DNA of 45,288 nucleotides from Escherichia phage vB_EcoS-phiEc3: the sequence record NC_073323.1; one strand, 5' to 3'. Under the pieces are notes generated by a model. That model did no database searches, was not told the origin of the DNA, and worked only from the letters and a program-made list of their open reading frames with translations. Position 1 is the first letter of the stretch; every line of letters starts with the position of its first letter. The position numbers and the translations under genes are program-made. Of this stretch, positions 4,320 through 38,746 are shown in pieces.

Positions 4320-4323
4320 TAAA

Positions 4324-4349
4324 AGGCCCCATTAAGGGGCCTTAGTTTT
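4324..4349. terminator. Bidirectional intrinsic terminator (GGCCCC-ATTAA-GGGGCC flanked by A and T runs)
   Basis: Perfect GC stem, AAAA upstream and TTAGTTTT downstream, between convergent genes. Confidence 0.6.
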
Positions 4350-4552
4350 CAACGGAATCTTGTGTTTAAATCCTGCTCGTGGACGACCCTCAGAACAGTG
4401 TCATAATCCCCGTATCTTCCAGGTTCAAATACATCTAATGCCTTGTAAGCAGACATTGCGTCAGGGAAAACCTGCAGAACCTTTTTAACACGGCACAAGT
4501 CACCGTCGAACTCTTCATCGAACTCTTGAACTACTTCGCAAATTGCATACAT
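4349..4552 (-). CDS. Hypothetical protein, 67 aa, opposite-strand insert in head module
   Basis: ATG start, own minus-strand promoter at 4580-4608, ends at bidirectional terminator. Confidence 0.55.
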   Translation of the reverse strand: MYAICEVVQEFDEEFDGDLCRVKKVLQVFPDAMSAYKALDVFEPGRYGDYDTVLRVVHEQDLNTRFR

Positions 4553-4579
4553 TTTTCACCTCCTGCTTAAGTTAACTGA

Positions 4580-4608
4580 ATAGTACCCTATTATATTGGG
4601 GTGTGCAA
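4580..4608 (-). promoter_or_regulatory. Sigma70-like promoter TTGCAC-17-TACTAT (conserved element copy)
   Basis: -35 at 4603-4608, -10 at 4580-4585 on minus strand; 33-bp core repeated near-identically at 13949-13977 and 37708-37736. Confidence 0.5.
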
Positions 4609-4674
4609 ACTATTTATTTACTTATTCCAGTTATTCCGCTCAATTGTAAATGTTGGAATAAACTATTCGAATAG

Positions 4675-4703
4675 TTGACTTTTCACTAAAAATATGATAA
4701 GCT
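4675..4703 (+). promoter_or_regulatory. Sigma70-like promoter TTGACT-17-TGnTAAGCT (extended -10)
   Basis: Conserved with 37399-37427; 17-nt spacer, TG at -15/-14. Confidence 0.5.
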
Positions 4704-4707
4704 CCAC

Positions 4708-4817
4708 CTGAGCTTGTGAAGTATGAACAAGCGACCGCGGCGCTGGCAGGTAACGGAGCGGGACGTAAGTCCTGAGTGTAGTTACGCTGACGCGTTCGGA
4801 AGGGCCATACTCTATTG
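4708..4817 (+). ncRNA. Candidate structured leader RNA, copy 1
   Basis: Paralogous to 37431-37541; three helices supported by compensatory changes; no conserved ORF. Confidence 0.5.
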
Positions 4818-4883
4818 CTTGTGTAAAAAGTAACAGGTTTACTTAGATTACGCCGTTTCTATGTTTAAATGATAAGGACTAGC

Positions 4884-4910
4884 GCCCTGCTTTAAGGCAG
4901 GGCTTTACTT
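4884..4910 (+). terminator. Terminator/attenuator-like hairpin GCCCTGC-loop-GCAGGGC plus TTTACTT
   Basis: 7-bp GC stem then T-rich tail, between leader RNA and spanin gene RBS. Confidence 0.45.
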
Positions 4911-4927
4911 ATCGAGAAAGGGGAAAC

Positions 4928-5314
4928 ATGAATCTTAAAGCAACCGTCGTAGCAGGAGCATGTTTCATCATCCTGGCTTACACACACGGCATTTATCAGT
5001 ACCGCAGCGGCTGGCACGAAGGCCGCGCTAATCTCGTTTCGCAGCAACAGCAGAAAGCACAGGCCGAGTTAGCGAAGAAAACACAACGGCAGCAGCAAGA
5101 TGAATCAAAGGCCGCCGCCGCTGACAACGAAGGCAAGACGAAATCAGAGGTGATCACCCGTGAAGTCGTTAAGTACATTAAAACTCCTGGTCGCAGCGTG
5201 TGCACTTTCGACCCTGAGCGCGTGCAGCTCAAGTCCCGCGCCGTCGCAAACGCCAATTCCATCCCCGGATACGACGATGATGCAGCCGCCGTGCAAGCTG
5301 GCACCGCCGAGTAG
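4928..5314 (+). CDS. Rz-like i-spanin
   Basis: N-terminal TM helix, Gln/Ala/Lys-rich coiled coil, RBS GAGAAAGGGG; contains embedded out-of-frame lipoprotein gene. Confidence 0.6.
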   Translation: MNLKATVVAGACFIILAYTHGIYQYRSGWHEGRANLVSQQQQKAQAELAKKTQRQQQDESKAAAADNEGKTKSEVITREVVKYIKTPGRSVCTFDPERVQLKSRAVANANSIPGYDDDAAAVQAGTAE

Positions 5315-5423: not shown

Positions 5424-5505
5424 TTGCCTTGCATGTTGGAATAATTTATTCTTGACATGTAAATCCGGGTGGCCCGGGTTCCAACGTCCAGGGGACATAC
5501 TGACT

Positions 5506-6210
5506 ATGAATCGTTTTTTACGTTATCCGTTCCAGGAAGAAGCTGGGGCAGAAGATAAAGCTGGTGGCGGTGACGCGCCGAAAATGTTCACCGCTGAAGA
5601 AGTTCAGGCGCTGATTGAGAAAGAAGTTGCCGGGCTTAAGGCTAATCAGGAAGCATTGTTGGCGGAGAAGAAAGAAGCCGCTCGCAAAGCAAAAGAGGCC
5701 GAAGAAGAACGGCAGCGCGCGCACCAGGAGGCGTTAAAAGCCGCTGGTAAGATGGATGAGTTCGAAAAGACGATTCGTAGCCAGTATGACCCGGTGTTAG
5801 CCGAGAAAGACGGTCGCATCTCCAGAATGGCAGAGCGTATCCTCGGCAGCGAACGTAAAGCGGTGCTAGGCTCTTTCGCGGGTGACTTTATTACCCCAGA
5901 AGCAGTGGACATTCTTGCGCCGTTCGTTAAGACTGAGTTCGAAGGCGATGATGTGGTTACTAAGTTTGTTGGCGCAGACGGCAACGTAATCACGACTGAC
6001 CCGGAACAGTTCCGCAAATACTTGCGAGAACACAAAGCGTTTTCACATTTGATTAAAGCAAATGCAGCTTCCGGCGGCGGGGCTTCCGGTAGCAAAGGCG
6101 GCGGGGCCGCACCAGCGTTTAAAGACATGAGTGAAGCGGAGCGTATCGCTCTGTACGAATCGAACCCTGCCGAATTTGAACGGCAACTTAAAGCCCTGAG
6201 GAAAAAATAA
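5506..6210 (+). CDS. Scaffolding protein
   Basis: Coiled-coil Ala/Glu/Lys-rich protein immediately upstream of major capsid gene; ATG at 5506 after AGGGGA (track ORF starts 5452). Confidence 0.6.
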   Translation: MNRFLRYPFQEEAGAEDKAGGGDAPKMFTAEEVQALIEKEVAGLKANQEALLAEKKEAARKAKEAEEERQRAHQEALKAAGKMDEFEKTIRSQYDPVLAEKDGRISRMAERILGSERKAVLGSFAGDFITPEAVDILAPFVKTEFEGDDVVTKFVGADGNVITTDPEQFRKYLREHKAFSHLIKANAASGGGASGSKGGGAAPAFKDMSEAERIALYESNPAEFERQLKALRKK

Positions 6211-7259
6211 TGGCAATTACTACTATCGGCGACATCGTAACTGGTAAAGAATCGGTAATCCTGTCCTACATGACAGAGGACCCGGTAGAGAAAACCGCGT
6301 TCTTCCAGTCCGGTATCCTTACCTCGACTCCGTATGCCGCCGCTATCGCAAACGGCCCGTCCAACAAAGCGGTCCTGCCGTACTGGAAAGCTATTGATAC
6401 CTCTATCGAGCCGAACTACTCGAACGACGTATATCAGGACGTCGCCACCCCGCGTAACGTGCAAACCGGTGAGATGGATGTTCGCGTAGCTTACCTGAAC
6501 GAAGGTTTTGGTCAGGCTGACCTGACGGTAGAACTGACCAGCCAGAATCCGCTGCAATCCGTGGCTTCCCGTCTGGATAACTTCTGGCAGCGTCAGGCAC
6601 AACGCCGTCTTATTGCTACCGCGCTCGGTCTGTACAATGATAACGTAGCGGCTACCGATGCGTACCACGAGCAGAACGACATGGTTATTGACGTGTCCGC
6701 TACTCTGGGCTTCGACTCCGGCGCGTTCATCGATGCTACCCAGACTATGGGCGATGCGCTGATGGGTAACGGTGGTGAAGTGCTTGGCGCTATCGCGATG
6801 CACAGCTTCGTTTATGCGCAGGCGCGTAAGCAGCAGCTTATCGACTTCATTCGCGACGCTGACAACAACACCATGTTCGCCACCTACCAGGGCTATCGTG
6901 TGATTGTTGACGACAGCATGACCGTAGTCGGAACTGGCAACAGCCGTAAGTTCATCTCCATCATCTTCGGCAACGGTGCTATCGGTTACGGCGAAGGTTC
7001 TCCGTCAAACCCGCTGGAATACGAGCGCGAAGCGTCTCGCGGTAACGGTGGTGGTGTCGAAACCCTGTGGACCCGTAAGACCTGGTTGCTGCATCCGTTT
7101 GGTTACAGTTTCACCAGCACTGTAATCACCGGCAACGGCACCGAGACTATCGCCCGCTCTGCTTCCTGGCAGGACCTGGCGAACGCTTCCAACTGGAACC
7201 GTGTGGTTGACCGTAAGCATGTACCGATTGCCTTCCTGGTAACTGGTGTCGGGGCTTAA
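6210..7259 (+). CDS. Major capsid protein
   Basis: 349 aa, follows scaffold with overlapping stop/start, followed by strong terminator. Confidence 0.7.
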   Translation: MAITTIGDIVTGKESVILSYMTEDPVEKTAFFQSGILTSTPYAAAIANGPSNKAVLPYWKAIDTSIEPNYSNDVYQDVATPRNVQTGEMDVRVAYLNEGFGQADLTVELTSQNPLQSVASRLDNFWQRQAQRRLIATALGLYNDNVAATDAYHEQNDMVIDVSATLGFDSGAFIDATQTMGDALMGNGGEVLGAIAMHSFVYAQARKQQLIDFIRDADNNTMFATYQGYRVIVDDSMTVVGTGNSRKFISIIFGNGAIGYGEGSPSNPLEYEREASRGNGGGVETLWTRKTWLLHPFGYSFTSTVITGNGTETIARSASWQDLANASNWNRVVDRKHVPIAFLVTGVGA

Positions 7260-7274
7260 GGTTAAGATATAATC

Positions 7275-7298
7275 GAGAGGGACTTCGGTCCCTCTTTT
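7275..7298 (+). terminator. Intrinsic terminator (GAGGGAC-TTCG-GTCCCTC then TTTT)
   Basis: Perfect stem with UUCG loop and T run after capsid gene. Confidence 0.65.
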
Positions 7299-10496: not shown

Positions 10497-11663
10497 ATGG
10501 CTACAACTCCTTTTAAGGGCGCGAATACCGCGCAATTCTATGTGGCGGAAGTGACCCCGGGCGTAACACCGGCTAACCCGGTATGGTCGCCGTTGCGCAA
10601 CACGGGCGGCGTTCCTGCCATTACCCGCGACACGCTGACCTCCAACGAACTTGACGGCAGCCGAGAAACCACATCCATCCGCACCGGTAACAAGCAGGTT
10701 AGCGGAGAATACGCTATTGAGCTTAGCTCTAAAAGTCAGGACGACTGGTTAGCCGGGGCTTTAGGCTCTACGTGGCAATCCGGCGTTTCCCTGTCAGGAC
10801 TATCGATTACCGTCGCACCCGCGGGCAAGACGTTCACACGCGCTACCGGCAGTTTTATCACTGACGGAGTTGGGGTAGGCGACCTGATTGCGTTTACCGA
10901 TTTAACAGGCGATAACGCAAAACCATTTATTGTTACTGCAGTAACGGCTACGGTTGTTACTGGTGCGGGCATCCAACACACCCTGACCACCGAGACAAAA
11001 ACTAGTAAGGCTAAAACTGGCGACACGTTGGAAACCGGTAACACGTGTAAGACGTTCTCTATCCTTACCTGGTACAAAGGCCAGTGCGGCGGTACTGACG
11101 CGTACACGTTAACCAAAGGCGTGGAAGTTTCTGGTTTTACCATCGAACAGGCTGTTAACGCGATGGTAACTGGCAGCTTCCCATTCATCGGTCGCAGTCA
11201 GGAGATTCTCACTACGCCGCCGACCGGTTCCAACTTCTCATCTGTTACTTTTGGTGATGAGCCGTTCTCTTCGGTTGACGTTTCCGTGTTCGATGGCTCT
11301 ACGCCGTTGCGTTGTGATAGCCTTACCATCACCAACGACAACAGCGCGTCCGCGCAGTTCGAACTCGGCAACTCTAACGTTGCGTTTGTGGAACGTAGCC
11401 GCGCAGCTAACACCTTCTCCATCTCCGGTAAGCTGTATGACATGGCTATGATTCAGAAGTTTATCAACGAGCAGCAGGTAGAGATTAACTCTATTCTGGC
11501 AGGGGTAAACGGGGCTATGTCTTTCAGTCTGAAACGAGCCGAACTTACGGCGGTTACACCAGAGATTGGCGGCCCGGAGTCAATCACCCAGAGCATAGAA
11601 GGACAGTCCACAGGCAACCAGTACCAGTCGTCTATTGTAATTCAACGTATCACCTACGCATAA
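10497..11663 (+). CDS. Major tail protein (gpV-like N-terminal domain with C-terminal extension)
   Basis: N-terminus FKGANTAQFYVAEV...PANP resembles lambda V; RBS AGAGG; strong terminator follows. Confidence 0.55.
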   Translation: MATTPFKGANTAQFYVAEVTPGVTPANPVWSPLRNTGGVPAITRDTLTSNELDGSRETTSIRTGNKQVSGEYAIELSSKSQDDWLAGALGSTWQSGVSLSGLSITVAPAGKTFTRATGSFITDGVGVGDLIAFTDLTGDNAKPFIVTAVTATVVTGAGIQHTLTTETKTSKAKTGDTLETGNTCKTFSILTWYKGQCGGTDAYTLTKGVEVSGFTIEQAVNAMVTGSFPFIGRSQEILTTPPTGSNFSSVTFGDEPFSSVDVSVFDGSTPLRCDSLTITNDNSASAQFELGNSNVAFVERSRAANTFSISGKLYDMAMIQKFINEQQVEINSILAGVNGAMSFSLKRAELTAVTPEIGGPESITQSIEGQSTGNQYQSSIVIQRITYA

Positions 11664-11666
11664 AAC

Positions 11667-11692
11667 TAAGGCCCCGAAAGGGGCCTTTTTCT
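11667..11692 (+). terminator. Intrinsic terminator (GGCCCC-GAAA-GGGGCC then TTTTT)
   Basis: Perfect 6-bp GC stem with GNRA loop and T run. Confidence 0.7.
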
Positions 11693-13714: not shown

Positions 13715-13906
13715 CTACTTCTCTTTCACGTTCGAGTTGCAAGCCCAGATTAAAATGAATACCCACGGCAACAGAATCCACCCGAGAAATAAGTTAGCCA
13801 TGAATATCGCCAGCTTTGCTTTATGGTTACGCATATGTGCCACCAAAAACGGGATAAAATAAACGGCTACAAAAATAATTAAGAAGAACATAGTGATACC
13901 GGTCAT
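13715..13906 (-). CDS. Small membrane protein
   Basis: Two predicted TM helices; start at internal ATG 13906 with AGGAG RBS (track start 13933 lacks RBS). Confidence 0.5.
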   Translation of the reverse strand: MTGITMFFLIIFVAVYFIPFLVAHMRNHKAKLAIFMANLFLGWILLPWVFILIWACNSNVKEK

Positions 13907-13948
13907 AACATAACTCCTGATTTGAGATAACATCGTTGGTGTAAGTGA

Positions 13949-13977
13949 ATAGTACGCTATTATATTGGGGAGTGCAA
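13949..13977 (-). promoter_or_regulatory. Sigma70-like promoter TTGCAC-17-TACTAT (conserved element copy)
   Basis: Same 33-bp core as 4580-4608; drives minus-strand cassette; plus-orientation -10 TATATT overlaps. Confidence 0.5.
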
Positions 13978-14084
13978 GTAGTGTGCTAGAATAATTTTGC
14001 GCCTAGTGTCGCACACGAAAAGCGGGTGGTTCCCGTCTGGCGCATTTCCTTTAACCAGTAACCTCTTAACCAAAGGATTAAAGA

Positions 14085-14501
14085 ATGAAACTTTCTGATT
14101 TTTATTACGAAGCGGAAGCCGAAAAGGGCGCACGTATGCCGATACCGCTAAAAGACGGTACTGATTCCGGGGAATGGCTTAATGTTGTTTCTCCTGAGGC
14201 GGACGTTGCCGTTAAGGCTATGCGCGCGTTCACCCTTGCATACCGGGCAGTATTAGGGAAATTAAAACCGCTTCGTGATAAGTGCGAAGAGATGAAAGAT
14301 TTCTCTGAATACAACCTGAAGATGGAAGACGCGGCGACGGACCTTAACCGTCAGTTAGCGATTGAATTGGTTAACGGGTGGAGCCTTGACGACGAATTCA
14401 ATAAAGAGAATCTGAACACACTCCTGACGCAATATAAACGACTCGCGGAACTTGTTGTTGTGTTTCATAACGAACAACTGCACCAGCTACAGGAAAAGTA
14501 G
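14085..14501 (+). CDS. Tail assembly chaperone (gpG-like)
   Basis: Acidic 138 aa protein directly upstream of tape measure region. Confidence 0.55.
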   Translation: MKLSDFYYEAEAEKGARMPIPLKDGTDSGEWLNVVSPEADVAVKAMRAFTLAYRAVLGKLKPLRDKCEEMKDFSEYNLKMEDAATDLNRQLAIELVNGWSLDDEFNKENLNTLLTQYKRLAELVVVFHNEQLHQLQEK

Positions 14502-22067: not shown

Positions 22068-24053
22068 ATGTCAAGCGGATGCGGTGACGTTTTAAGCCTG
22101 GCGGATTTACAGACCGCCAAGAAACATCAGATTTTCGAGGCCGAGGTTATCACTGGCAAATCCGGCGGTGTAGCTACGGGTGCAGACATTGATTACGCAA
22201 CAAATCAGGTTACCGGGCAGACGCAGAAGACGCTTCCTGCCGTGTTGCGCGACGCGGGTTTTTCTCCGGTGTCATGGGATTTCTCCACAGGCGGCACGTT
22301 AACCGTTAACGACCGGGACAAGGTGGTGTATGACCCTGTTAGCGAAACATGGTACTCGTACGCAGGTACGTTACCAGTTGTTGTCCCTGCATCGTTTAAT
22401 CCAGTCGGTAACGCTAACTGGAAGCCGCAGACAGACCCAAATTTGCGTAATGATTTGGCGTCAAGTACCGCCGGTTTGGGGGCTTCACTGGTGTCTTTTT
22501 CCAACGGTAACACCGTTGAAACATTATCTGACGCGGAAGGTGCCAAGAACATAGGCAGTGGCGAAAGGAGTTTGCTTGCACGTAACAATGATATTAAGCA
22601 TTCTGGCGACTTTTCTACCCTTCAAGCCGCGGTAGATGCGTCGTTAACTAAAAACGACTTAATTGTTTCTCCGGGTGAGTATACAGAAGCAATCACTCTG
22701 GGTAGTAAGCAGATAAAAGGTGTAGGTGGTGCTGCAATATTAAAACCATCGGCAAACTATGCAAATACTGTACAGGTTAATTTATCCACCCCGCACTGGC
22801 AGTTTCGACACAGCGGTGGTTTTGCCGTAGATGGTACAGGTACAACTGGGGCCGTAGGTATTAGTTTTGACCCGTCAGACCAATATTCCGGACGTCATAA
22901 TTTTAGTGATTTATACATCCACAACATCAACAAGGCCATTCAGAAGCCTTCCGGGAACATCGGCAATACGTGGAGAAGTATTGGGGTATCTACGTGTGAT
23001 TGGGGGTATTACGCGATTAGTGGCTCAGAGATGCATTGCGGGGCCGATACCCTCTACAATATCCACTTCGACGGCATCTCCACCTATGCCGTCTACCTAA
23101 ACGGTACTGTCGATAACGGTGGGATAGGCGGATGGTGGCTTAAAGACTCCATTATTGAGGCTTCCGGAGGCGGCGGGATATACTTAAAAAGCAAATCGGG
23201 TGACTGTCCTACATCTCCATGCGGGGTATCCAATGTATGGATGGAAGCTATTGCAACATCATCGGCTGTTCAGGTAGATGGCGTGGCGCAAAAACCGCGA
23301 GTTCTCAAGTTGGTAGACACCGCGATATTCTTTGCTGAGTATTCTTATCTCAACAACATCGAGCTATCCAACTCCAACTTAGTAACTTATGGTTGCCGTT
23401 TTGACAACGCTGATGGTAATCAGGATATTGTAGTGGATGCACAAAGCACCATTGTAGCCCACGATGTGTATTTAAACGGCAGTTCTGGAAAGGACGTTAT
23501 TGTAGAGTCTGTCGCGTCGCAATCCGCAACGGTAGCCACTACAAACTTGTCTCTACGAGGAAATTTAACAAGGGGACGAGTGTTTAATACGCCGACGGGG
23601 AATAAGTTAAAAGCTATCACATTTGACTCAGGTAGCCATAATTTTTCTGGTAGCGGTACCGTTAACGGTTCGACTGTATCTGACGGACTTCACGCCGCTA
23701 CATGTACCGAATTTTCATTCCCTGGGTCCGGTTTATATGAAATGGTAGCGTCAAGAACGACACTTACATCCGGTAGATGGTACGTGTGGGGCGTCAACTC
23801 TCGCCTCCAATCAGGAACAGCAGATGTGAGTATAACGTTAGGTATTACTATGGGTAGCGTTTATACTAAGTCTGGTGAGTGGATTAGCACATTTGGGGTG
23901 GGTAAAGCTTCCGCTAACGGTACTGTAGGTCTGTACGTCTCTACTGGGGGAGGTTCAGGTGCTGTTATCAGATTTAGTGACTTCTTCATCGCTGAGTTTA
24001 CGACGCAGGCTCAGGCTTTAGCTTTCGCTAACTCCCGAATGTCGTTGGCTTAA
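22068..24053 (+). CDS. Tailspike / tail fibre with predicted beta-helical receptor-binding or depolymerase domain
   Basis: 661 aa, last structural gene, Gly/Ser/Thr/Asn-rich repeats, followed by terminator. Confidence 0.55.
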   Translation: MSSGCGDVLSLADLQTAKKHQIFEAEVITGKSGGVATGADIDYATNQVTGQTQKTLPAVLRDAGFSPVSWDFSTGGTLTVNDRDKVVYDPVSETWYSYAGTLPVVVPASFNPVGNANWKPQTDPNLRNDLASSTAGLGASLVSFSNGNTVETLSDAEGAKNIGSGERSLLARNNDIKHSGDFSTLQAAVDASLTKNDLIVSPGEYTEAITLGSKQIKGVGGAAILKPSANYANTVQVNLSTPHWQFRHSGGFAVDGTGTTGAVGISFDPSDQYSGRHNFSDLYIHNINKAIQKPSGNIGNTWRSIGVSTCDWGYYAISGSEMHCGADTLYNIHFDGISTYAVYLNGTVDNGGIGGWWLKDSIIEASGGGGIYLKSKSGDCPTSPCGVSNVWMEAIATSSAVQVDGVAQKPRVLKLVDTAIFFAEYSYLNNIELSNSNLVTYGCRFDNADGNQDIVVDAQSTIVAHDVYLNGSSGKDVIVESVASQSATVATTNLSLRGNLTRGRVFNTPTGNKLKAITFDSGSHNFSGSGTVNGSTVSDGLHAATCTEFSFPGSGLYEMVASRTTLTSGRWYVWGVNSRLQSGTADVSITLGITMGSVYTKSGEWISTFGVGKASANGTVGLYVSTGGGSGAVIRFSDFFIAEFTTQAQALAFANSRMSLA

Positions 24054-24056
24054 AAC

Positions 24057-24082
24057 TAAGGCCCCAAACGGGGCCTTTTCTC
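24057..24082. terminator. Bidirectional intrinsic terminator (GGCCCC-AAAC-GGGGCC then TTTT)
   Basis: Between convergent structural and replication modules. Confidence 0.7.
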
Positions 24083-27307: not shown

Positions 27308-27595
27308 CTAACTATAATAGTTCGCTATTAGGGCGTCAACCTGTTTAAACGAACCAACGACAAAAACATTAGCACCACGCTTACGCATCCGCTCGTGCTC
27401 CCGTAACTGGTGTGGATCCGGCTTCGTGCTTTCGTCTTTCTTTATCTCGACGAACCAGATGACGCCGCCGGGGAGAATTACCAGCAGGTCAGGGGCGCCG
27501 GAACGTCCTTCGTAGGAAAGTTTACGAACGAGGCCACCAATGGCCTCGAATCGGTCTTTTGCGTATTTCTGTATTTTGCCCTCAGGCGTACTCAT
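27308..27595 (-). CDS. VRR-NUC domain nuclease
   Basis: Motif VIWFVEIKKDESTKPDPHQ (PD-(D/E)XK-like); ATG at 27595 after GAGGGG (track starts at GTG 27631). Confidence 0.6.
   Translation of the reverse strand: MSTPEGKIQKYAKDRFEAIGGLVRKLSYEGRSGAPDLLVILPGGVIWFVEIKKDESTKPDPHQLREHERMRKRGANVFVVGSFKQVDALIANYYS
27311..27339 (-). promoter_or_regulatory. Sigma70-like promoter TTGACG-17-TATAGT with AATAG-N4-CTATT dyad in spacer
   Basis: Same architecture as 31071-31099 and 33982-34010. Confidence 0.5.
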
Positions 27596-30325: not shown

Positions 30326-30342
30326 TATTTTCGACCCTTAGT

Positions 30343-30365
30343 AAAAAGGCCCAATGAAGGGCCTT
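30343..30365 (-). terminator. Intrinsic terminator (AGGCCC-loop-GGGCCT, T run on minus strand)
   Basis: Hairpin with AAAAA on plus strand downstream of SSB-like gene. Confidence 0.55.
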
Positions 30366-30384
30366 AGTTAAACAGATTCAGATA

Positions 30385-31017: not shown

Positions 31018-31070
31018 CGTGATTTCTCGCTTTTAAGTTTACTCCGGGAGCTGCCCGGCCAGTGATTAGA

Positions 31071-31099
31071 ACTATAATAGCTAACTATTCATGTGTCAA
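31071..31099 (-). promoter_or_regulatory. Sigma70-like promoter TTGACA-17-TATAGT with AATAG-N4-CTATT dyad
   Basis: Perfect -35, 17-nt spacer. Confidence 0.55.
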
Positions 31100-33953: not shown

Positions 33954-33981
33954 ATCTTCACCTCTCGTTTGGTATGGGCTA

Positions 33982-34010
33982 ACTATAATAGCGAACTATT
34001 CACTTGTCAA
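33982..34010 (-). promoter_or_regulatory. Sigma70-like promoter TTGACA-17-TATAGT with AATAG-N4-CTATT dyad
   Basis: Perfect -35, 17-nt spacer; divergent from HTH gene. Confidence 0.55.
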
Positions 34011-36835: not shown

Positions 36836-37126
36836 TTATCTTTTAGCCAGACATTCCATCAAATGTGCGTACTTACGATAATAATCTGCGACAATCTCAT
36901 CACCGAAATACTGATAAACGTAGGATAGGTGGTCGGAGACATCGATGGAAGCCGACATTGTGCTGAGTCTTCTTAGACTAATCGACTGCAATTCTTCTGT
37001 AACGCAAAACGGCAAATATGAGTCCAGTTTACAGGAAACGTTAAAACACAACGCATACTCACCTTGCACTAAATAGACCATATAAGCACTGTCATTTTCT
37101 TTATCGTGGAAAATTACACCTTTCAT
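36836..37126 (-). CDS. Hypothetical protein, 96 aa
   Basis: ORF in leftward early operon. Confidence 0.45.
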   Translation of the reverse strand: MKGVIFHDKENDSAYMVYLVQGEYALCFNVSCKLDSYLPFCVTEELQSISLRRLSTMSASIDVSDHLSYVYQYFGDEIVADYYRKYAHLMECLAKR

Positions 37127-37293
37127 TTCACGTTCTCCTTAATCCACGCTTCAACTTTATTACGGTCAAATGTTCCTGGTAAACGGCGCCCCATTACTTT
37201 AACGCTGCAATCAGGAAACTTTCCACTCTTAATCCAGTTATTGATTGTCTGGCGGGTGACGCCGATTAATTCTGCAACTTCATTGATAGTCAT
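37123..37293 (-). CDS. AlpA/excisionase-like HTH DNA-binding protein
   Basis: Motif MTINEVAELIGVTRQTINNWIKSGKFP; ATG at 37293 after AGGAG (track extends to 37383 via TTG). Confidence 0.6.
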   Translation of the reverse strand: MTINEVAELIGVTRQTINNWIKSGKFPDCSVKVMGRRLPGTFDRNKVEAWIKENVK

Positions 37294-37322
37294 CTCGCGC
37301 TCTCCTGTGTAATATGTATCGA

Positions 37323-37351
37323 AGTATAAGGCGGTAACTTTGTAAAAGCAA
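37323..37351 (-). promoter_or_regulatory. Sigma70-like promoter TTGCTT-17-TATACT (leftward early)
   Basis: 17-nt spacer; 8-bp inverted repeat TAACTTTG/CAAAGTTA at 37335-37342 and 37365-37372. Confidence 0.45.
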
Positions 37352-37398
37352 CCAAAACACCACGCAAAGTTACTAAAATACAAAAGATGCTACTGGTA

Positions 37399-37427
37399 TT
37401 GACTTTTACTTGAAAATATGCTAAGCT
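37399..37427 (+). promoter_or_regulatory. Sigma70-like promoter TTGACT-17-TGnTAAGCT (rightward early)
   Basis: Conserved with 4675-4703. Confidence 0.5.
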
Positions 37428-37430
37428 TCA

Positions 37431-37541
37431 CTGAGCTTGTGAGATATCGCAAGCGACCGCGGAGCGGCAGGGAACGCAACGCGTGCCATTAGGCACTTGA
37501 GTGTAGTTCCGCTGACGCTTTCGGAAGGGTCAAAGTCTATT
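37431..37541 (+). ncRNA. Candidate structured leader RNA, copy 2
   Basis: Paralogous to 4708-4817 with compensatory substitutions in two helices. Confidence 0.5.
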
Positions 37542-37609
37542 GTTAATCCCGCCTAAATATCCAAGTCACTGATAATTAAAAGTTTCTATAGTTGCCGTGA
37601 GCAAGGTAG

Positions 37610-37666
37610 AGAGTACTTCACTCCGCTGGGGTGGGCTAAAGCCCACCCGCTGCGTTGCGTACTCTT
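37610..37666 (+). terminator. Extended stem-loop, terminator/attenuator-like
   Basis: Inner GGGTGGGC-TAAA-GCCCACCC closed by AGAGTAC/GTACTCT, then TTTAAAG. Confidence 0.35.
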
Positions 37667-37707
37667 TAAAGAAACAAAAGAATCACAACGGCAACGTAAC
37701 TATTCTC

Positions 37708-37736
37708 TTGCACACCCCAACATAATAGGATACTAT
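37708..37736 (+). promoter_or_regulatory. Sigma70-like promoter TTGCAC-17-TACTAT (conserved element copy)
   Basis: Same core as 4580-4608 and 13949-13977; AGGAG RBS follows. Confidence 0.5.
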
Positions 37737-37770
37737 TCACTTATCGGAACGAGACAGAGGAGTGATGGTT

Positions 37771-38684: not shown

Positions 38685-38718
38685 TGTTCAATAGTTTAAG
38701 ATTTTACTGAGTGACTTA

Positions 38719-38746
38719 CGCTGCTACACAGCAGCGTATCATTTTT
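38719..38746 (+). terminator. Intrinsic terminator (CGCTGCT-ACAC-AGCAGCG then T-rich)
   Basis: 7-bp stem followed by TATCATTTTTCT. Confidence 0.6.

Follow-up and report, generated by a model that had tools for sequence, protein, structure and literature searches.

RNA-mediated control of transcription elongation has, to our knowledge, only two natural examples, put and EAR. Read-through at put takes place in cis and independently of protein, and it is lost with mutations in the beta' zinc-binding domain. The put elements of phage HK022, putL and putR, are paralogues located on two operons; putL lies just 3' of its promoter, forms two stem-loops, binds the beta' zinc-binding domain and suppresses terminators many kb away without any protein (PMC9378689). 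Here we analysed the 45.3-kb DNA of Escherichia phage vB_EcoS-phiEc3 (NC_073323.1, 45,288 nt; the whole stretch is called the window), a complete Kagunavirus-like siphovirus genome (Guernseyvirinae), in which a promoter followed by a structured leader RNA occurs twice, once upstream of the spanin, scaffold and capsid genes (copy 1, the late copy) and once upstream of the early genes (copy 2, the early copy). The two leaders belong to one RNA family, and we tentatively favour a role in cis, comparable to that of put, in transcription through the hairpins and terminators downstream.

Like put, the element occurs as two promoter-proximal paralogues per genome, each near the start of a long operon; it has two adjacent bulged stem-loops, terminators downstream and no known dedicated protein, and it belongs to phages of enteric bacteria. 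Unlike in these points of layout, no homology in sequence or structure was found: covariance models R1 (E up to 10) and R2 (E up to 5) gave no match in the HK022 genome, and putL (28310-28240 of HK022, minus strand), read directly, had no motif in common with the element. The sizes also differ, ~70 nt for put vs ~95-108 nt here (stem-loops of 21 nt, P1, and 65 nt, the long arm, plus a conserved 18-nt tail). Moreover, HK022 is lambdoid, whereas the present phage is a virulent siphovirus. With the nut sites of lambda, the element has in common that there is one promoter-proximal RNA per operon, in paralogous copies and acting in cis (presumably so here). Both the 15-nt boxB hairpin and the linear boxA of nut are absent, however, the tail ACUCUAUUG bearing only a loose resemblance to boxA; the element is five to seven times larger, and a scan of 20 small proteins of the genome recognised none that is N-like.

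Q and AlpA need a -10-like element in the initially transcribed region (PMC9371919). The lambda PR'-6S leader-tR' system of Q and the Pseudomonas AlpA system (PMC9371919, PMC7969949) resemble the late locus in that a strong promoter with a conserved spacer and a -10-like hexamer over the start site (a weak match here) leads into a short, terminator-ended leader, with lysis and then morphogenesis genes downstream. Those systems consist of DNA elements and a protein and need no fold of the leader RNA, whereas here an RNA fold is preserved by selection and no Q- or AlpA-like protein was recognised among the 20 scanned.

Results

A promoter and a leader RNA occur twice in the window

The promoter TTGACT-17-TGnTAAGCT and the ~108 nt that follow it were present at 4675-4817 and 37399-37542 and nowhere else in the window (Table 1). 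An earlier note on this DNA, made by reading the sequence, had described such a recurring block of about 145 bp. The recurrence was borne out, with 79% mean column identity over aligned stretches of ~260 nt: two degenerate patterns, one of the promoter and one of the 3' half, each matched exactly two sites in the window, with none expected from shuffled sequences, and a covariance model search of the window returned copies 1 and 2 only. All promoter and helix coordinates of that note agreed with the sequence. Its statement that the flanks are unrelated stands insofar as the likeness fades 3' of the block, but the short motifs GTTTCTAT and GCCGT recur in the linkers of both copies.

Judged by their sequences, both promoters are of the sigma-70 type with an extended -10, and a conserved promoter of this kind does lie directly upstream of the RNA, as had been proposed. 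Including its A/T-rich spacer (TTGACT TTT.ACT..AAATRTG.TAAGCT), it was kept in both copies and in all loci of sequence types A to E (see below), whereas type F has TTGACT/TAGACT-17-TGTTACGCT with a different spacer. Transcription of copy 1 probably starts at G4710 or A4711, and each RNA copy begins 1-3 nt from the start site so deduced for its promoter.

A 16-bp perfect palindrome, AACTATTCGAATAGTT, overlaps the -35 hexamer of copy 1. With G4710 as the start, its centre lies at -41.5, the classical position of class II activators, and it may be a binding site for a regulator. The palindrome block was found in nearly all copy-1 loci; it is missing at copy 2 and degenerate in the Salmonella type F.

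Six sequence types share one RNA fold

Members of the family were collected by pattern scans of IMG/VR, by BLAST against 50,697 phage records, from loci fetched through the capsid protein and by a metagenome scan. Six sequence types (A-F) were found in the phage and metagenome records. Type A is the late copy represented by copy 1 (181 records from phages of E. coli and Salmonella, of which 175 show at least 95% identity), and type B is the early copy of the window. Types C, D and E are the early copy of other Kagunaviruses, and type F is a late copy (269 records, mostly of Salmonella Jerseyvirus). Together, the 181 and 269 records amount to ~450 E. coli and Salmonella phage genomes.

Folded alone and unaligned, all six types gave one common architecture. 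Hairpin P1 stands 1-3 nt from the deduced 5' end in every type, even where its sequence is wholly replaced, and is followed by a long bulged hairpin (~20 bp with an internal loop, comprising P2, P3 and P4) and a single-stranded tail. At the base of the long arm CCG, a bulged C and then GGNGC are paired to GCN'UU-CGG; the bulged C is invariant, as are two tandem G.U pairs in the stem. The GGCAG/CUGAC segment between the basal stem and P3 contains a G.A mismatch, where type E and one variant of type F have G-C. Between P3 and P4 there is a conserved internal loop with AACG.AGC (GAAGC in type F) opposite AG[U/C]G(U)A[G/A]. The tail, CGGAAGGGYC...CUAUUG, is nearly invariant in all types, and its CGGAAGGGYC portion is invariant from A to F.

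The helices vary while their pairing is kept. P1 is GCUUGU/ACAAGC or UACGCU/AGCGUA (an almost full swap, in type F), pair N32:N92 is C-G, A-U or U-A, and position 2 of P3 is U-A, G-C or A-U. P4 was found as GGGAC/GUCCU, CGGAC/GUCCG, GUGCC/GGCAC, ACGUC/GACGU, CACG/CGUG, GGUGC/GCACU and GGGCG/CGCCC. Copy 2 thus has the architecture of copy 1 with other helix sequences: its P1 is lengthened to 8 bp, P3 is GGAAC/GUUCC and P4 is GUGCC/GGCAC. Based on 33 distinct sequences of types A to E, 96.4% of the cells were paired, vs 30-42% when the partners were slid by 1-3 columns, and the covariation score was reached by none of 500 shuffles. When type F was added, both sides had changed in 12 of the 27 pairs, a number reached by 2 of 500 shuffles; overall, 96% of the cells were paired, vs 29-42% in the slid controls. 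Both alignments (A-E and A-F) were fitted to the model, a bias toward the structure; the single-sequence folds and RNAalifold on a plain MAFFT alignment are independent of the model and agree with the structure.

G.U pairs are numerous, and they and the A-U to G.U changes are consistent with the plus strand only; the conserved object is therefore an RNA, not a DNA cruciform or a protein-binding site. The two blocks were thus established as paralogues that encode one kind of structured, non-coding RNA on the plus strand. The compensatory changes that the earlier note had read from two copies now extend over six types. A helix P0 (GACC/GGYC) closing the arm was considered and rejected as the main fold; the rival CCG/CGG register is backed by the covarying pair N32:N92.

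The RNA is not coding and matches no described family

Copy 1 overlaps an open reading frame (ORF) of 36 codons (4723-4833) without a Shine-Dalgarno sequence, and copy 2 one of 24 codons (37418-37492) that starts upstream of the likely transcription start. The earlier note had given 5 and 24 codons, the former incorrectly, but rightly held that no ORF is conserved. A small protein-coding gene was rejected, since the K1ind variant stops at codon 10, type B (within the transcript) and type F have no ATG, and indels shift the frame. In genome records, the element is annotated as nothing or as a hypothetical protein.

The earlier note did not recognise a known RNA family in the element, and the RNA is indeed unknown to Rfam. 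Rfam 15 had no gathering-level match in the window apart from an int-alpA element elsewhere (see below). At E up to 10, both loci gave chance-level matches only (at most 20 bits), and a gathering-level search of nine related loci gave none for the element. The families that it does not match include the EAR antitermination RNA, 6S, riboswitches and ribozymes. A host or prophage origin was rejected, since a blastn search of 5,426 complete E. coli genomes gave no match. The searched literature holds no description of the element; the one transcriptome paper on a Kagunavirus is at gene level only. Going by Rfam 15 and the searchable literature, it is an undescribed RNA family of the general phage 5' leader/regulatory RNA kind.

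Employing Pfam and PHROG, we recognised no protein of the Q, N or AlpA families among the 20 small proteins, a search by family and not by structural similarity. The only DNA-binding candidates among them were an HTH_17 protein (at most 86 amino acids), encoded beside copy 2, and an HTH_3 protein.

The late copy is near-universal and the early copy optional

The family was confined to Kagunavirus and Jerseyvirus phages. In both genera the late copy is near-universal and always lies 5' of the spanin-scaffold-capsid operon. The early copy is optional (~40 of ~180 type-A genomes); Salmonella phages have the late copy alone, and at the early locus of Bas75 an unrelated promoter-hairpin-terminator leader replaces copy 2. 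The early operon can thus do without copy 2, and, as the unrelated Bas75 module at this locus shows, the early-leader position is a slot for interchangeable RNA cassettes. In that module (L039, 36700-36960), a promoter is followed by a long near-perfect hairpin (GGAGTTGACGAA...TTCGTCAACTCC) and the terminator GGGCAGGCTTAAGCCTGCCCTTT.

The late leader block (~4607-4927) showed 90-98% identity in Salmonella phages, and its neighbouring genes ~60-90%. The leader is better conserved than the genes that flank it, which points to strong purifying selection. Directly upstream of the block lies a variable, moron-like gene on the minus strand. The metagenomic phage IMGVR_UViG_3300045988_039442 carries a type E core within late-locus flanks (L071, 2220-2328), while its own early copy, on the same contig, is of type B (L072, 9596-9705). 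A type E core at a late locus indicates exchange between the two loci by recombination or gene conversion.

A search for more distant homologues among 78 distinct capsid-fetched loci was negative: both covariance models matched close relatives only, those with a capsid identity of at least ~87%, and not all of those. The metagenome pattern scan re-found types A, B, C and E only, amid many GC-rich chance matches.

Each leader has a hairpin downstream of a linker predicted to be open

In both leaders, the core and the hairpin downstream are separated by 65-80 nt of linker predicted to be open. In a comparison of E. coli and Salmonella phages, the copy-1 linker was at least 95% conserved among the copy-1 loci. 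Separately, we observed GCCGU, as ACGCCGU or UGCCGU[AG]G, 25-70 nt 5' of the 3' hairpin in every leader examined: at 4851-4855 and 37593-37597 of the window, in the linkers of L117 and L041, and also in the unrelated early leader of Bas75 (L039, ~36897-36901). GUUUCU is a frequent companion.

The GC hairpin followed by a T run that the earlier note had placed from 4884 onward was called by the terminator scan. It has 8 pairs, 6 of them GC, followed by TTTACTTATC, and its stem covaries in relatives (CCCUGC/GCAGGG vs CCCCGC/GCGGGG). Type F retains the hairpin, again with compensatory changes, and has the tail UUAGCGU. From its sequence, the copy-1 hairpin is a leaky-looking intrinsic terminator. 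The unit ends 15 nt 5' of the start codon of the Rz-like gene (4928), with no promoter between; late genes fed from the copy-1 promoter must therefore be reached by read-through of 4884-4912. The leader of copy 2 ends in a long irregular hairpin that is terminator-like in its predicted fold and was not called by the strict terminator scan. Strong internal terminators of the plus strand lie upstream of essential genes in both operons (38717-38738, 2756-2771 and 7275-7296).

Folds of the full leader keep the core and the downstream hairpin together in both copies. Their predicted coexistence counts against an attenuation switch and for a processive effect. The switch, which the earlier note had named as one option, was tried and rejected as unlikely: no alternative pairing with the terminator was found, the 5' strand of P2 and the 5' arm of the terminator matching over only 5-6 nt without covariation between phages. 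It is further undercut by Bas75, in which the CCCUGC arm occurs together with the common P2 sequence.

As a side observation, near-identical terminator hairpins fall into families (AAGGCCCCGAAAGGGGCCTTTT and variants) at 2744-2775, 11658-11689 and 24048-24079, and at 4320-4347 and 30342-30369. U-runs are long after the hairpins that close operons and short and interrupted after the internal ones, to which the leader hairpin 4884-4903 belongs.

Genome setting

Operons and genes were assigned under the guidance of the annotation of the close relative Bas75 and of near-identical phages; Escherichia phage vB_Eco_K-01 is 99.9% identical to the window over both regions queried. The first plus-strand unit runs from ~37.4 kb through small early genes, holin/endolysin, terminase, portal and head morphogenesis genes to ~4.3 kb. 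The second begins at ~4.7 kb and comprises the genes for the Rz-like spanin, scaffold, major capsid, connectors and tail up to a terminator at 11.67 kb. The third begins at ~14.0 kb and extends from the tail chaperones to the tailspike. Replication genes occupy the minus strand at 24-37 kb, and the genome has a T7-like replication module that encodes a DNA polymerase, a helicase-primase and a Gp2.5-like single-stranded DNA-binding protein (SSB). A second promoter, different in class from that of copy 2, lies 3' of the copy-2 leader, ahead of the early genes that it serves (first gene at 37762).

Table 1. Positions of the two leaders, their parts and neighbouring genes in the window (MFE, minimum free energy)
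Feature	Position	Strand	Details and basis
Palindrome AACTATTCGAATAGTT, candidate regulator site	4661-4676	.	16 bp, perfect; direct sequence reading
Copy-1 promoter (putative)	4675-4703	+	-35 TTGACT 4675-4680; 17-nt A/T-rich spacer; extended -10 TGaTAAGCT 4695-4703 (TG 4695-4696, TAAGCT 4698-4703)
Copy-1 RNA core, type A	4710-4817	+	Covariance-model score 128.6 bits; MFE fold; covariation counts
Copy-1 hairpin P1	4712-4717 with 4727-4732	+	
Copy-1 long bulged hairpin P2-P3-P4	4735-4799	+	Apical P4 4759-4774; GUAA loop 4765-4768
Copy-1 helices	4761-4772; 4750-4754 with 4781-4785	+	GGAC/GTAA/GTCC; GTAAC with GTTAC
Copy-1 single-stranded tail	4800-4817	+	AAGGGCCAUACUCUAUUG
Copy-1 linker, predicted unstructured	4818-4883	+	AU-rich, with GCCGU motif; centroid fold mostly open; identity profile
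Copy-1 GC hairpin, leaky-looking terminator	4884-4912 (hairpin 4884-4903)	+	GCCCUGC-UUUAAG-GCAGGGC, then UUUACUUAU; terminator scan
Rz-like i-spanin, first gene 3' of copy-1 leader	4928-5314	+	ORF list; annotation of near-identical phages
Scaffold gene	5452-6210	+	ORF list; annotation of near-identical phages
Major capsid gene	6210-7259	+	ORF list; annotation of near-identical phages
HTH_17 gene, divergent from copy-2 promoter	37123-37383	-	
Copy-2 promoter (putative)	37399-37427	+	TTGACT-17-TGcTAAGCT; divergent from HTH_17 gene
Copy-2 RNA core, type B	37433-37542	+	Covariance-model score 101.1 bits; MFE z = -2.8; fold
Copy-2 helices	37483-37496; 37471-37475 with 37506-37510	+	GTGCC/ATTA/GGCAC; GGAAC with GTTCC
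Copy-2 long irregular hairpin, terminator-like	37610-37669 (hairpin 37610-37665)	+	AGAGUAC...GGGGUGGGC-UAAA-GCCCACCC...GUACUCU, then UUUAAAG; fold, sequence
Second promoter, upstream of first early gene	37708-37736	+	TTGCAC-17-TACTAT; spacer palindrome AATAG-N4-CTATT

Discussion

Structure and distribution of the element are solid, and the mechanism that would make it remarkable is one that we infer. Our preferred account, held with less than even confidence, is that of a cis-acting leader which alters transcription through downstream hairpin-terminators in the manner of put. The RNA, the first to emerge from RNA polymerase, would fold and act on the complex that makes it, rendering elongation resistant to the leaky terminator next to it and to the terminators inside the operon. 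Like HK022 put, it might need no partner for this, or it might rely on a factor of the host or the phage; distal late genes would be reached only by transcripts from these promoters. A contribution of the 5'-terminal hairpin to the stability of the mRNA would be compatible with such an action.

A role in cis is favoured by the position of the element as the very first RNA out of the polymerase and by the presence of one copy at the head of each of two plus-strand operons. The copies keep their structure while their sequences drift, as do nutL/nutR and putL/putR; divergence in sequence also limits recombination between direct repeats. Nothing can be expressed from the late promoter unless polymerase gets past the hairpin at 4884-4912, and strong terminators inside both operons lie just 5' of essential genes. 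The third plus-strand operon, too, opens with a promoter and then a structured RNA (int-alpA), and the lack of a recognised Q-, N- or AlpA-family protein among the 20 scanned points the same way. Recognition by a conserved machine of the host, e.g. RNA polymerase, would fit the invariant bulges, tandem G.U pairs, internal loop and tail as well as the near-identity of the element in E. coli and Salmonella phages. In the strongest form of this account, the element would be an RNA-only processive antiterminator, the second independently evolved family after HK022 put, in virulent siphoviruses with E. coli and Salmonella hosts. The nascent RNA would use its 5' stem with the tandem G.U pairs and bulged C and its GGAAGGGYC tail to bind the host RNA polymerase and license it through terminators across the 7-12 kb late operon. 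By analogy such an antiterminator can be imagined, but we consider it unlikely.

Several points weigh against a cis-acting leader. The start site, the 3' end and the read-through are all ones that we infer. The element has no likeness to put, models R1 and R2 being without a match in HK022, and none to any Rfam family, the EAR antitermination RNA included. The U-tract after the hairpin is weak, UUUACUU in type A and nearly none in type F (UUAGCGU), and the hairpin may not be a terminator at all. Copy 2 has a promoter for the early genes downstream of it, is swapped for an unrelated leader in Bas75 and is missing from Salmonella phages. A core that binds RNA polymerase would, by itself, leave the near-invariance of the unstructured linker unexplained. 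In addition, partial terminators after capsid genes are common in phages without an antitermination system. The nut/put-like element of the earlier note thus keeps circumstantial support from the copies at operon heads and from the hairpins and internal terminators downstream, while the missing put likeness, the weak U-tract and the dispensable early copy tell against it.

Instead of a cis-acting leader, the unit could be, in line with the alternative named in the earlier note, a stand-alone small RNA (sRNA) of ~195 nt (copy 1) or 235 nt (copy 2) that has a strong promoter to itself, ends at the hairpin and acts in trans on host or phage RNAs or proteins, with late read-through being incidental. 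The layout of promoter, structured 5' domain, AU-rich open linker and 3' hairpin would suit an sRNA, the early genes have a separate promoter 3' of the copy-2 hairpin, the single-stranded CGGAAGGGYC is invariant, and the strong selection on everything from +1 to the hairpin, open linker included, would be in keeping with a seed or a protein-binding region. A trans-acting RNA, however, needs no two diverged copies exactly at operon heads; the U-tails mentioned above are too short for a typical Hfq-dependent sRNA, and the copy-1 unit, being so close to the Rz start with no promoter between, is necessarily part of the late 5' untranslated region (UTR). No homologue or complementary stretch was found in the 5,426 E. 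coli genomes at blastn sensitivity, to which short seeds are invisible. We regard an sRNA as possible but unlikely. A stabiliser or processing element of the mRNA is a little more doubtful still: the 5'-end hairpin would block 5'-end-dependent decay and the long hairpin would be an RNase III-type site as in T7, yielding more scaffold and capsid mRNA. The constant place of P1 in all types despite the full replacement of its sequence, the ~20-bp hairpin with its internal loop, the position before the most highly needed structural genes and the several paralogous copies per genome, which is the pattern of T7, all agree with this. T7, also a virulent phage, likewise has irregular hairpins with an internal loop repeated along its long mRNAs, the RNase III sites, and the present phage has a T7-like replication module. 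Those sites, however, lie between genes throughout the genome and not at +1 of host-type promoters. A generic stabiliser would need neither the invariant bulges, tandem G.U pairs, conserved internal loop and invariant tail nor 95-100% identity across genera, and conservation of loop and tail exceeds the needs of RNase III.

The late switch might also depend on a protein, as with lambda PR'-tR'/Q or AlpA: a DNA-binding protein of the phage would attach to the promoter spacer, engage the RNA polymerase that pauses on a -10-like sequence over the start site, and take it past the terminator of the leader, with the RNA fold in a secondary role. The order of promoter, ~190-nt leader, terminator, lysis gene and head genes mirrors lambda PR', and the spacer TTT.ACT..AAATRTG is shared by both copies though their RNA helices have diverged. 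There is a -10-like GAGCTT at the start site (4710-4715; A and T occupy positions 2 and 6), the start site of type F is an exact repeat of its -10 TACGCT, and the early HTH_17 protein is encoded beside copy 2. Such a switch would leave the compensatory changes that keep the RNA helices unexplained; no domain of the Q or AlpA families was found among the 20 proteins scanned, the HTH_17 protein has no room for a ring-forming N-terminal part, the -10-like match is weak, possibly due to chance and dependent on a deduced start site, and the type F spacer differs. On these grounds we hold it to be improbable. An attenuator that senses a ligand or a protein (a riboswitch-like aptamer or a protein binding site) and tunes termination or translation of the late operon is highly improbable. 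Invariant nucleotides in junction, bulge and internal loop beside covarying helices are the pattern of an aptamer, and the RNA lies in a 5' UTR upstream of a hairpin, but 65-80 nt separate that hairpin from the core, the two have no sequence in common, and no mutually exclusive fold is predicted; no Rfam riboswitch matched, and the gene context suggests no ligand. We give hardly any credence to a transcription-primed replication origin of the T7 kind, made of a host RNA polymerase promoter and an AT-rich region. The promoter is indeed followed by an AT-rich linker, the replication module is T7-like, with its Gp2.5-like SSB, helicase-primase and DNA polymerase, and the cumulative GC-skew minimum (~36.5-37.5 kb) is near copy 2; the skew merely tracks gene orientation, however, the universal copy is copy 1 and not copy 2, and covariation specific to the RNA strand would be unexpected.

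Of the E. coli and Salmonella phages that are isolated for therapy and biocontrol, Kagunavirus and Jerseyvirus are some of the most common, and the timing of their late genes is achieved with host RNA polymerase alone. The leader is the best-conserved non-coding sequence of their genomes and is placed exactly where a late switch is expected. It offers a compact, easily tested candidate for RNA-mediated elongation control, with six natural helix-swapped variants as a ready-made mutagenesis series. An Rfam entry and a correction of the spurious ORF calls are warranted even if the element turns out to be no more than an sRNA or a stabiliser.

Additional observations

The int-alpA (RF02996) match in the window lies at 13996-14060 on the plus strand (36.6 bits vs a gathering threshold of 35.8). 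Its start coincides roughly with +1 of a TGnTAGAAT promoter, and the third plus-strand operon, that of the tail (first gene at 14085), has it as its leader. Its outer stem and U-run are terminator-like, and Bas75 has a corresponding match (L039, 14309-14373; 35.8 bits). In integrative elements, int-alpA usually adjoins alpA/integrase genes, so that its occurrence as the leader of a late operon of a virulent phage was unexpected. It is similar to the element studied here in its place at an operon head of the same genome directly after a promoter, and is perhaps a sister leader in function; it differs in its unrelated sequence and fold, a three-way junction of ~65 nt, and the element itself gave no match to this family.

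Two families of near-consensus sigma-70 promoters were seen, TTGCAC-17-TACTAT and TTGACA-17-TATAGT, with sites at 4573-4608 (minus), 13942-13977 (minus) and 37708-37736 (plus), and at 27310-27339, 31070-31099 and 33981-34010 (minus). They serve small moron genes of the minus strand, the first early gene and the replication operons, and both carry in the spacer the palindrome AATAG-N4-CTATT, which resembles a phage repressor operator. The half-site GAATAGT of AACTATTCGAATAGTT is the same as in these spacer operators, arranged the opposite way. The small minus-strand genes at 4349-4552 and 13715-13933, which interrupt the plus-strand late region, each have a TTGCAC-type promoter and are moron-like. 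One encodes a 67-amino-acid product that matched no family, and many relatives lack this gene or have another in its place; the product of the other is an Imm_superinfect (superinfection immunity) protein.

In the leader of a Jerseyvirus-like phage (L118, 2100-2215), GACCGCG adjoins CGGAAGGGUC to form a mini-hairpin, and a separate long hairpin with GUAGCGA...AACGAGC lies upstream. This leader, which the family covariance models did not match, may be a domain-permuted relative of the family. In a relative with 91% capsid identity, ~800 nt without a sizeable ORF (L094, 780-1620) lie upstream of a holin-like gene; the stretch had no Rfam match and may represent a degraded gene or else a non-coding RNA of large size. 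In type D early leaders (L043 and L045), a (CTCA)n microsatellite stands ~100 nt 3' of the core, just 5' of the hairpin, and its copy number differs among otherwise near-identical phages.

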